From contig OZ253496.1 in the NCBI GenBank assembly GCA_965262115.1, positions 800,001 to 864,000 on the forward strand: 64,000 nt of DNA. Direction: 5' to 3'. The notes under the pieces were generated by a model, which searched no databases, had not been told where the DNA came from, and saw only the letters and a program-made list of their open reading frames with translations. This document shows positions 6,368-53,410 of the stretch, in pieces. This DNA comes from Nitrospinales bacterium. GTDB taxonomy: Bacteria; Nitrospinota; Nitrospinia; Nitrospinales; VA-1. The position numbers and the translations under genes were made by a program. Position 1 is the first letter of the stretch. Every line of letters begins with the position of its first letter.

Positions 6368-6406
6368 TGTGATATTTAACCTTTGCCTTCATGCCCCGAA
6401 GGGGTA
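6368..6406 (-). mobile_element. 39-nt mini-element copy, inside a partial ~97-bp element
   Basis: Reverse complement taccccttcggggcatgaaggcaaaggttaaatatcaca matches the family consensus. Confidence 0.85.
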
Positions 6407-14123: not shown

Positions 14124-14522
14124 CTATTTATTACTAAACAGGGTTTTCAGGGTAACCACTCCATAACCAATAAGCAGGAGGGCGATCAGTCCACTGGAAA
14201 AAGAGTTCTGGCTCATAGCGCTGGTGAACACAAAAACACCCACTGCGCTCAAAATCACACCGAGGACAAAAAAACTAAATGTGCGATAAATCGGGATTTT
14301 GCTTTCCAGAGAATCGCGTTTTTGTTTGAGTTGCCACCGCCAACGAAGGATATAATAGGTCTGGCGAACCCAGTTGAACAATCCACTGTCTTCAATCAGG
14401 CTGGTCTTACAATACATGCAATGGGTGTCCGTATTGCGATTGGGGAACCCGCAATTCAGGCATATTTTGCTGTCCTGGTTTTGATTTAAAATCACAGGTT
14501 CTTTTTCCGGCTTATCCATCAA
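14124..14522 (-). CDS. Hypothetical membrane protein with N-terminal zinc-ribbon-like CxxC..CxxC
   Basis: CLNC/CMYC and two C-terminal hydrophobic helices. Confidence 0.75.
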   Translation of the reverse strand: MMDKPEKEPVILNQNQDSKICLNCGFPNRNTDTHCMYCKTSLIEDSGLFNWVRQTYYILRWRWQLKQKRDSLESKIPIYRTFSFFVLGVILSAVGVFVFTSAMSQNSFSSGLIALLLIGYGVVTLKTLFSNK

Positions 14523-14637
14523 AACTCCCAGGCGAAGAACCTCCGCCGGCCAGCATGACGCTGGACTCAGTTAGCAATAGCTTTTTACCGCTAGCAATCA
14601 TTCTTCATTGGCCCCGCGCCTAGTGGCCCTCTAGCGA

Positions 14638-14766
14638 GAGACCTTTGCGTAAGTCTATAAATCAGAAAAGCGAGATGCTTCGACAAGCTCAGCATGACAA
14701 TAAAAGGCTATTTTGTCATTCTGAGGAGCTATTGCAACGAAGAATCTTGGGTTATGCAAAGGTCTC
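14638..14766. mobile_element. 129-bp MITE with 15-bp TIRs and 9-bp target duplication
   Basis: TIRs gagacctttgcgtaa / ttatgcaaaggtctc (14 of 15 match); direct repeats ctctagcga at 14629-14637 and 14767-14775. Confidence 0.9.
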
Positions 14767-14858
14767 CTCTAGCGAGGGAGGTAACTGGGCAGGGGTTTCT
14801 TTAAGCCGCGAAACCCTTTGCTCACCAAATAAAATTATTACCCCTTCGGGGCACGAAA

Positions 14859-15055
14859 TACCCGTGCCGGGCATGAAGGCAAAGGTAAAATATCACATAC
14901 CCGTGCCGGGCATGAAGGCAAAGGTAAAATATCACATACCCGTGCCGGGCATGAAGGCAAAGGTAAAATATCACATACCCGTGCCGGGCATGAAGGCAAA
15001 GGTAAAATATCACATACCCGTGCCGGGCATGAAGGCGAATGAAGAGGACATCACA
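14859..15055 (+). repeat. Head-to-tail array of the mini-element: 4 identical 39-nt units plus one 41-nt variant
   Basis: tacccgtgccgggcatgaaggcaaaggtaaaatatcaca x4, then tacccgtgccgggcatgaaggcgaatgaagaggacatcaca; lies inside another copy (14839-15074). Confidence 0.95.
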
Positions 15056-15229
15056 TCTGAGGAAGAATATCACGTGCTCATTGGCCACACGCTTAGTGGA
15101 TCGGCACATTTCGCCAAAAAGATTAAAAAAATCACGCTTAACGGGTAAGTTTAAATTTTATTACTTATGGAAAGCACTGTCAATCTCCATCGTTGAGAAT
15201 AAATCTATCCCCGCGGAGATCTATTAATC

Positions 15230-16087
15230 ATGATTGAACCGGAAGGCTCAATTGCCTATAATCCAGTTCCCTTTAAAAAAATTAAAAACTCCATGGTAAT
15301 GAAACAGATTCTTTTCTTCCTTTTATCGCTTTGTATGGTTTCGCCCGGTTTTGCCGCGCCCTCTTCCGAAGAAATGGCGCTCATTCCGGCTGGAAAATCT
15401 CAGATGGGGAGCCGGAAATCCCTGTTGGAACTCAAACCCCACGATTTATTCAACACTGACCGACACACCCTGGGCCCGGAAAACCCAGCTCATGAGGTTT
15501 ATCTTGATGCGTTCTACATAGATATTTATGAAATGACTCACAAAAAATATAGAAAGTATGTCGACGCTACCGGAGCCAAAAAACCCCAGAGCTGGAAAAA
15601 TCCCAAATTCAACGGTGACCAGCAACCGGTGGTCGGCGTTTCCTGGAAGGAAGCAGTCGCTTATTGCGAATGGAGCGATAAAAGGCTTCCCACAGAAGCT
15701 GAGTGGGAAAAAGCGGGCCGGGGCAAACGACCGGTCAAATACCCCTGGGGGGATTCTCCACCCGATTCAGAAAAACTGAACTATAACGAAGAGAAGATGA
15801 ACACCACCCCGGTGGGTTCCTATGAAAAAGGCAAATCGGATTACGGCATCTATGATCTTTCCGGCAACGCTTCCGAATGGGTTCATGACTGGCATTACCC
15901 GGAGTACTACCTGTTTTCTCCCAAAGAAAATCCGCAGGGTCCGGAAAAAGGACAATATAAAATCATTCGCGGGGGAAACTGGAGAAACAATGCCGATGAT
16001 GTCGACCTGACCTACCGCAATGCAACCACACCCCGCCTGAAGAGTAACGGTGTAGGATTTCGTTGCGCTAAAAACGCATCGGAATAA
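15230..16087 (+). CDS. Formylglycine-generating enzyme (SUMF1) domain protein, secreted; true start may be ~15293-15299
   Basis: PVVGVSW, KRLPTEAEWEKA, YDLSGNASEW, RGGNW, GFRC motifs; signal peptide. Confidence 0.92.
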   Translation: MIEPEGSIAYNPVPFKKIKNSMVMKQILFFLLSLCMVSPGFAAPSSEEMALIPAGKSQMGSRKSLLELKPHDLFNTDRHTLGPENPAHEVYLDAFYIDIYEMTHKKYRKYVDATGAKKPQSWKNPKFNGDQQPVVGVSWKEAVAYCEWSDKRLPTEAEWEKAGRGKRPVKYPWGDSPPDSEKLNYNEEKMNTTPVGSYEKGKSDYGIYDLSGNASEWVHDWHYPEYYLFSPKENPQGPEKGQYKIIRGGNWRNNADDVDLTYRNATTPRLKSNGVGFRCAKNASE

Positions 16088-18008: not shown

Positions 18009-18187
18009 CCCTCTAGCGAGGGAGGCAACTGGGCAGGGGCTTCTTTAAGCCGCGAAACCCTTTGCTCGCCAAATAAAGTTATTACCCCTTCGGGGCACGA
18101 AATACCCGTGCCGGGCATGAAGTTTAAGGAAGAGGACATCACAGCTACGGAAGAATATCACGTGCTCATTGGCCCCACGCCTAGTGG
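18009..18187 (-). mobile_element. ~97-bp element with two nested mini-element copies (18083-18162 containing 18103-18143)
   Basis: Near-identical to the composite at 14627-15099, without the MITE and the tandem array. Confidence 0.88.
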
Positions 18188-53307: not shown

Positions 53308-53355
53308 AGGGTTACAGAATACATTGTCCTTAGGGTTACAGAATACATTGTCCTT
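53308..53355. repeat. Exact 24-bp tandem duplication
   Basis: agggttacagaatacattgtcctt x2. Confidence 0.95.
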
Positions 53356-53410
53356 ATTGCGTCGCTTAATGCGTCTATTCCTTACGGTTTTTTACGTTAA
53401 CACCCGGTAT

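Follow-up and report, generated by a model that had tools for sequence, protein, structure and literature searches.

How did four identical 39-nt units and a 41-nt variant come to stand head to tail inside a nested stack of repeats, and what moves a repeat so small? The stack lies at 14627–15099 of the window, the whole 64,000-nt stretch analysed here, with a heavy-metal P-type ATPase gene on one side and an FGE-sulfatase-domain gene on the other. How very small bacterial repeats such as REPs and small dispersed repeats (SDRs) spread is a long-standing open question. The literature searched, mostly open-access main texts, yielded no description of these repeats in Nitrospina. The window belongs to a 2.68-Mb genome in a single contig (G000), and G013, G007 and G019 are the relatives with which it was compared. 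Four kinds of small mobile DNA are nested in one another at the locus. The array itself is probably an ordinary local expansion, and the interest lies in the 39–41-nt mini-element of which it is made.

The stack landed, with no target duplication, at the 3′ hairpin end of an older member of a 99-bp family (14605–14626, plus strand, ending in CCTAGTGG). G013 and G007 both lack the whole inserted block (14627–15099, plus strand) at the orthologous site, and the empty alleles there hold this hairpin end once, keeping a single ...AGTGG end. The 22-nt direct repeat round the stack is therefore the older member's end plus the newcomer's end, and its reading as a target duplication is rejected. The outermost layer is a hairpin-ended element in three pieces (14627–14637, 14776–14838 and 15075–15099, plus strand). 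The first-pass annotation had recognised this element and its passengers correctly and had put its length at about 97 bp; reconstruction gives 99 bp. One passenger is a 129-bp MITE (14638–14766) with 15-nt terminal inverted repeats (TIRs; GAGACCTTTGCGTAA/TTATGCAAAGGTCTC) complementary at 14 of 15 positions. It is bounded by a 9-bp target duplication, CTCTAGCGA (plus strand; first copy 14629–14637, second copy 14767–14775). The other passenger is the outer mini-element, split into its first 20 nt, the head hairpin (14839–14858, plus strand), and its last 19 nt, the tail (15056–15074, plus strand), which make 39 nt when closed up. Inside it lie the four identical A-type units, 39 nt each and head to tail (14859–15014, plus strand; starts 14859, 14898, 14937 and 14976). 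They are followed by a 41-nt B-type unit (15015–15055, plus strand), which has its first 22 nt in common with the A units and is taken as the first resident nested in the outer mini-element.

The nested stack, the MITE, and the mini-element at 14839–15074 with its four units and one variant thus stand as first annotated. So does the remark that the four units differ from the fifth in their 3′ half and resemble a copy at 6368. That single mini-element (6368–6406, minus strand) differs by one base from the A tail and carries a hairpin of the other type. Elsewhere in G000 and G013, the A-type unit occurs single or double before another head. A sister composite at 18009–18187 (plus strand) consists of the 99-bp element, the outer mini-element and one nested B-type unit. 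It has the duplicated 9-mer once and is absent at the orthologous site of G013. Because it carries neither MITE nor A units, the composite would have formed first, with the MITE and the A units added later. Position 20 of the mini-element is a recurrent nesting site, with 20 head pairs 20 nt apart in two genomes. A 167-aa open reading frame over the stack (14645–15148) is taken as spurious, with one short Pfam match, to a repeated peptide, and comparison of 14400–15300 with the structured RNAs of Rfam gave no match with an E-value of 1 or lower. Members of the 99-bp family have a conserved core and vary in their hairpin ends; G000 has about 100–156 motif matches to the family, with about 156 ends like the one at 14605–14626. 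Here (14529–14626 and 18009–18187) it inserts directly after an AGTGG end without duplication, and it may share a mover with the mini-element. At 53308–53356 the window also has an exact 24-bp tandem duplication.

The 129-bp layer is an ordinary IS5-type MITE. It resembles IS5-family MITEs in its TIRs, in the 9-bp duplication and in having an autonomous partner, found in G013; the likeness holds for this layer only. Exact 9-bp duplications flank 36 of 60 such TIR pairs in G000 and 67 of 128 in G013. The partners are 1173-bp elements of G013 with the same TIR and a DDE_Tnp_1 plus DUF772 transposase; none between such TIRs was found in G000. The MITE interior holds two CGTC/TGTC-type palindromic repeats and resembles CGTC-tagged REPs (PMC3733652). 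At L174 7300–8700 in G013, kb-long clusters of CGTC-type repeats and mini-elements, apparently block-amplified, lie beside a full IS5-type element.

An array of identical units could be a single unit multiplied by the assembler, a possibility that read depth speaks against. Depth was taken from Logan contigs of public runs, which do not span the array, and runs X1–X3 come from one study that is possibly the source of the assembly. A 33-nt contig across the unit junction has an expected depth of 5 if the array has four units, 4 if it has three and 2 if it has one, and in the deepest run, X3, it stands at 4.7 times single-copy depth. In four runs a longer loop contig has roughly 6- to 10-fold depth, where the assembled array predicts 6.6 and a single unit 3.6. 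These depths fit an array of three to four units, rather than one.

The mini-element is a dispersed repeat of constant length, 39–41 nt. Its exact head motif occurs 198 times in G000 and 0–1 times in each of three shuffles. Allowing up to two mismatches, there are 334 head motifs in G000, 243 of them with an end at 37–43 nt; the corresponding figures for the 2.86 Mb of G013 read are 533 and 424. Precise empty sites without duplication were found at 12 orthologous positions between G000 and G013 (9 of 123 plus 3 of 192 elements with mappable flanks). Such precise insertion without duplication is new here. Of the 315 elements, 35 are filled in both genomes and 268 are unclassified because the host repeat itself differs between the genomes. 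The mini-element's ends are not inverted repeats and its 12 empty sites lack a target duplication, which sets it apart from MITEs.

What defines the ends of the mini-element emerges when they are placed side by side. Base 16 and the last base are Watson–Crick partners in 401 of 452 distinct sequences (TA 238, CG 141, AT 22), the departures being TG in 31, CA in 11 and others in 9. Their mutual information is 0.69, against at most 0.28 for any other partner. Among 173 flank-context clusters 155 keep the pair, and two or three different Watson–Crick types occur within 9 of 166 tail lineages. Position 17 pairs with the second-last base, which was fixed by the search pattern. Positions 6 and 10 covary as C-G, G-C and T-A and enclose a loop of three bases, GNA when read on the minus strand. 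Only if the end of the element is joined to its start do the two outer pairs lengthen the head hairpin to 8 bp. Of 452 computed junctions, 387 fold into this 8-bp stem on the minus strand and 339 on the plus. A real junction from the array also folds into it on the minus strand (14896–14914, a unit end plus the next head, with a GNA triloop and one G·T pair). The covariation of base 16 with the last base, making a continuous 8-bp hairpin only across an end-to-start junction, is new here.

We read the stack as a product of successive insertions of gene-less mobile repeats, whose 39–41-nt core would move singly as a single-stranded circle, closed at the 8-bp junction hairpin by an enzyme acting in trans. 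From the sequence evidence we put the probability of this reading at about 50%. It builds on the nesting, the empty orthologous sites, the lack of target duplications, the end-to-start register and the covariation across the junction. Against the single-strand circle stand the GG-to-CT change described below, which it leaves unexplained, and the failure to find a mover among the families searched.

The proposed pathway runs as follows. A 99-bp element would have received the outer mini-element, and the latter a B unit at its position 20. The composite would then have been copied to two places 3.2 kb apart. At the present locus only, an IS5-type transposase would have added the MITE with its 9-bp duplication, and an A unit would have entered before the B head. 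The one A unit may then have multiplied to four, either because identical 22-nt heads slipped or exchanged unequally, or because an active A type inserted repeatedly. In each movement, positions 16 and 17 would pair with the last two bases and hold the 3′ end against the 5′ end, so that a single HUH-like strand transfer would both circularise the element and reseal its flanks precisely. Run in reverse, the step would put the circle into hairpin-rich targets loosely like its own head, with any base but T at +2, a pyrimidine at +3 and C at +5. The joined form may be the working intermediate, or the pairing may instead align both ends in a single-stranded donor. At 39–41 nt a double-stranded circle is precluded by the stiffness of DNA. 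Signs of the acting strand are mixed: the GNA loop and a 2:14 G·T pair point to the minus strand, while the departures from the junction pair favour G·T on the plus strand, 31 to 11. Replichore bias is inconsistent, at 120/123 in G000 and 249/175 in G013. Transport within the MITE and recombination between repeats account for much of the copy number.

The mini-element lands mostly in other hairpin repeats. Of 135 flank contexts, 93 have C at +5, 99 have a pyrimidine at +3, 4 have T at +2, and 113 have A or T at −2. The mini-element's own head fits this bias, hence the head-to-tail chains. A programmable guide in the variable tail was considered and set aside. No Watson–Crick or identity signal linked tails to flanks over 173 contexts (best z 3.8 in about 2000 tests). 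Further tests gave a best z of 3.3 in a register scan, a z of −2.0 for duplex energy and p 0.05 for head-seeking tails. Between the A tail and the G-type head, 8 of 10 positions are complementary, and as a guide this did not generalise.

At two G-rich hairpin contexts, filled sites differ from empty ones in the target sequence. When the mini-element's own hairpin loop is the target, 21 of 27 filled sites carry CT at +3/+4, compared with 3 of 786 empty ones. The 27 filled loops represent 10 inner and 12 outer tail clusters, and the outer end pairing is intact in 14 of 16 scored. When the target is the hairpin of the 99-bp family, CT stands in 10 of 14 filled sites, which represent 2 tail clusters only, against 0 of 191 empty sites. 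Three orthologous empty sites retain GG. A third G-rich context has the change in 0 of 13 cases, and a search of the mini-element and the flanks for a template for CT found none. This change of GG to CT at target +3/+4 is a new observation. We lean slightly towards a change coupled to insertion, because spread of a founder by recombination needs repeated crossovers within two bases.

A mechanism that would account for the change directly is target-primed DNA synthesis. Here an RNA or single-stranded DNA template would be copied from a nick about 4–6 nt beyond the insertion point, rewriting +3/+4, and the junction pair would only position the template ends. The contrast between filled and empty sites in both hairpins and the GG kept at the three orthologous empty sites are what it predicts. 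It is nevertheless unlikely: the third context is unchanged, the second rests on two tail clusters, a template for CT turned up neither in the element nor in its flanks, and reverse transcriptase in G000 amounts to broken fragments.

The array is one of many chains. There are 20 head-to-tail chains in G000 and 64 in G013, together comprising 78 dimers, 5 trimers and one pentamer, the stack studied here. End-to-start junctions occur in 13 of 120 genomes of the phylum. The exact register that had been noticed in the stack extends genome-wide: of 95 head pairs spaced 36–44 nt in G000 and G013, 92 are joined end to start. Its use as a sign of concatemers is another matter. Slippage, concatemer formation and insertion at the element's own end all give this register, because A and B share a 22-nt head and one slip copies one unit. 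Adjacent units have the same tail in only 7 of 102 pairs and chains are mostly dimers; units therefore normally arrive singly before an existing head, and the data give no support to concatemers as the usual insertion product. Insertion at its own end gains support: A-like tails stand directly before another head in 20 of 22 copies, which need not be independent events, against 101 of 769 among all copies. Neighbouring units also agree in hairpin type in 96 of 102 pairs (null 61), or in 69 of 75 distinct combinations (null 45), which argues for homology-driven steps at heads, beyond plain transposition.

For growth from one A unit to four, our rough judgement gives slippage or unequal exchange about even odds and ranks repeated insertion of an active type well behind it, with rolling circle synthesis last. 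In the rolling circle account, the array arose in a single event: at the shared head a polymerase changed template to a 39-nt A circle, copied it four times over and came back. This would leave a run of identical units ended by an unlike one, a pattern seen in three cases, AAAAB here and two trimers in G013. The junction pair supports circles, and the hairpin agreement of neighbours fits homology-guided switching at heads. Yet dimers are 78 of the 84 chains, adjacent pairs with a common tail are only 7 of 102, three of the five trimers have unlike units, and slippage yields the same pattern without extra machinery. We regard the rolling circle as improbable. The first-pass annotation had named rolling circle and template jumping as routes to concatemers; a circular intermediate is independently supported by the cross-junction base pair, and jumping by a reverse transcriptase finds no support, the only fragments found in G000 being broken.

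Equally improbable is that the mini-element has no dedicated mover today and is an old REP-like repeat riding MITEs and phages and spread by ectopic recombination, its covariation being lineage history: many copies do sit at the same site of amplified hosts, chimeras are common, copies lie in four places on three phage contigs and mover searches found none, but insertions are precise at unrelated sites, including a phage gene end, the pair of base 16 and the last base switches within tail lineages, and near-identical units in several genera need sequence selection or active spread.

The search for a mover of the mini-element covered several enzyme families. No Y1 transposase was found in G000, G013 and G007, the three richest near-complete genomes. 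Y1 matches occur in 16 of 70 genomes of the family, including genera without the mini-element, and no mini-element head lies at 8 Y1 loci, up to 1.5 kb on each side. Y2 had no match in G000, where the test is limited by a control that matched nowhere either; Rep_trans had none in 5 genomes, with a control that matched once. A scan for HUH motifs yielded no mover. Two tyrosine recombinases of G013 were discarded, being of Xer size. No mover turned up among genes flanked by mini-element ends or among multicopy genes, with 21 of the candidate proteins scanned and Pfam scans covering a minor part of the proteome, and heads without an end were rejected as autonomous copies. G000 has no intact reverse transcriptase, only two broken RVT_1 pieces in a stretch without a G013 match. 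That stretch, positions 1–98700 of its contig C1, has no match in the G013 sequence read; its GC falls to 37–43%, it holds microsatellites besides the broken pieces, and it is possibly foreign DNA joined to the assembly.

GIY-YIG and DUF559 genes were likewise dismissed as movers of the mini-element, being flanked by other hairpin families. DUF559 has 9 Pfam matches in G000. Small DUF559 nuclease genes bracketed by their own inverted hairpin repeat lie on its contig C1 at 1582270–1582647, 660903–661280, 377376–377735, 735414–735788 and other places, and this nuclease is a candidate mover of its own bracketing repeat family. Small GIY-YIG genes are bracketed by CGTC-type palindromes at L010 1400–1900 and L012 1400–1750. 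No dedicated transposase is reported for CGTC repeats (PMC3733652).

Among known systems, the mini-element appears by analogy to work most like the single-stranded, hairpin-directed IS200/IS605 and REP/RAYT kind, yet it departs from it in guide, target and cognate enzyme. IS200/IS605 elements and REP/REPIN repeats, served by the Y1 HUH enzymes TnpA and TnpA-REP/RAYT, have a small end hairpin, insert without duplication and are intergenic, nested and clustered; for IS608 and ISDra2, DNA–DNA pairing sets the cleavage position and the intermediates are single-strand circles (PMC6006769, PMC8266576, PMC3116915). The mini-element shares the short hairpin near an end and the absence of duplication. 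Unlike these systems it lacks a GTAG/GTGG guide, and TTCR stands 5′ of its minus-strand hairpin. Nor has it a fixed target tetranucleotide, showing only a loose flank bias. It has one hairpin where they have two ends or a doublet, and its pairing partner is its own opposite end. The Y1 gene, finally, is missing from G000, G013 and G007. IS91/ISCR elements and Helitrons have polar ends, a terminal hairpin, no duplication and a target-like end that leads to tandem insertion. The mini-element is like them in polar ends, hairpin, lack of duplication and a target-like end, but is far shorter, has a loose target motif only and rarely forms homo-concatemers (7 of 102 pairs share a tail). The Nostoc SDRs, attributed to Elhai and colleagues in 2008, are reportedly very small mobile repeats of 21–27 nt with precise insertion and an unknown mover. 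The mini-element is like them in tiny size, precise insertion and orphan status, and differs in its 39–41 nt, its sequence and its phylum. One of them is SDR5 (PMC4390886).

IS110 enters as a lander on the mini-element. G000 has 24 Pfam PF01548 matches and 24–26 copies of an IS621-like IS110 (e.g. contig C1, 1212814–1214010). In all 26 of 26 right ends, the element is followed by CT and the right arm of the mini-element hairpin. In the non-coding left end, putative guides of 9 nt (left) and 7 nt (right) match the two halves of the mini-element head; in the example copy they lie at 1212927 and 1212953. The DEDD recombinase, CT core and paired putative guides in a non-coding end are as in IS621, whose bridge RNA layout has a CT core with left and right target guides (PMC11208160). 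The role here is that of a lander: the mini-element is the landing site of IS110 and is not moved by it. G013 has one frameshifted IS110 copy and G019 none, despite about 100–300 mini-elements; IS110 is therefore a parasite of the mini-element and is rejected as its mover. A non-autonomous IS110 passenger is rejected too, since the mini-element has no shared core at its ends, and the donor guide matches the insertion sequence's own end while the target guides match the mini-element head. Targeting of a repeat by IS110-type elements is itself a known pattern, described for REP repeats (PMC3184786), and the host is what is new. Several IS110 copies sit in a mini-element that is itself inside an IS3-like element.

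Within the family, 36 of 70 genomes, belonging to 5 of 12 genera, contain the mini-element pattern; it has no match among 16 genomes of three further families in the order. Near-identical units occur in several genera. Records with the repeat are titled Nitrospina, Nitrospinaceae or Nitrospinota at 126 of 129 loci. Of non-Nitrospina pattern matches, one is apparently a true copy in the usual host repeat and two are apparently chance. We tentatively raise, as possible and clearly less probable than the main reading, a new class of minimal mobile DNA. It would be a 39–41-nt single-strand circle that carries no signal but the hairpin made when its ends meet, with a mover outside Y1, Y2, Rep, DDE, IS110 and reverse transcriptase. 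It would insert without duplication, change two target bases at some G-rich hairpins, be able to form concatemers by rolling at its own head, be phage-borne across Nitrospinaceae genera and serve as the landing site of a bridge-RNA recombinase. With fixed ends, a compensatory pair meaningful only at the junction, polymorphic empty sites and a mutational scar in the target, the family is a sharply testable substrate; the circle and the scar, if confirmed, would point to an undescribed scarless single-strand insertion enzyme. Mini-elements occur in four places on three phage contigs. On one such contig (L303 1501–1580) there is a head-to-tail dimer, with an A tail that has C at position 16 and G at the end, and both units have the same hairpin. 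At L301 1501–1524, a mini-element supplies the last codons and the stop of a phage open reading frame.
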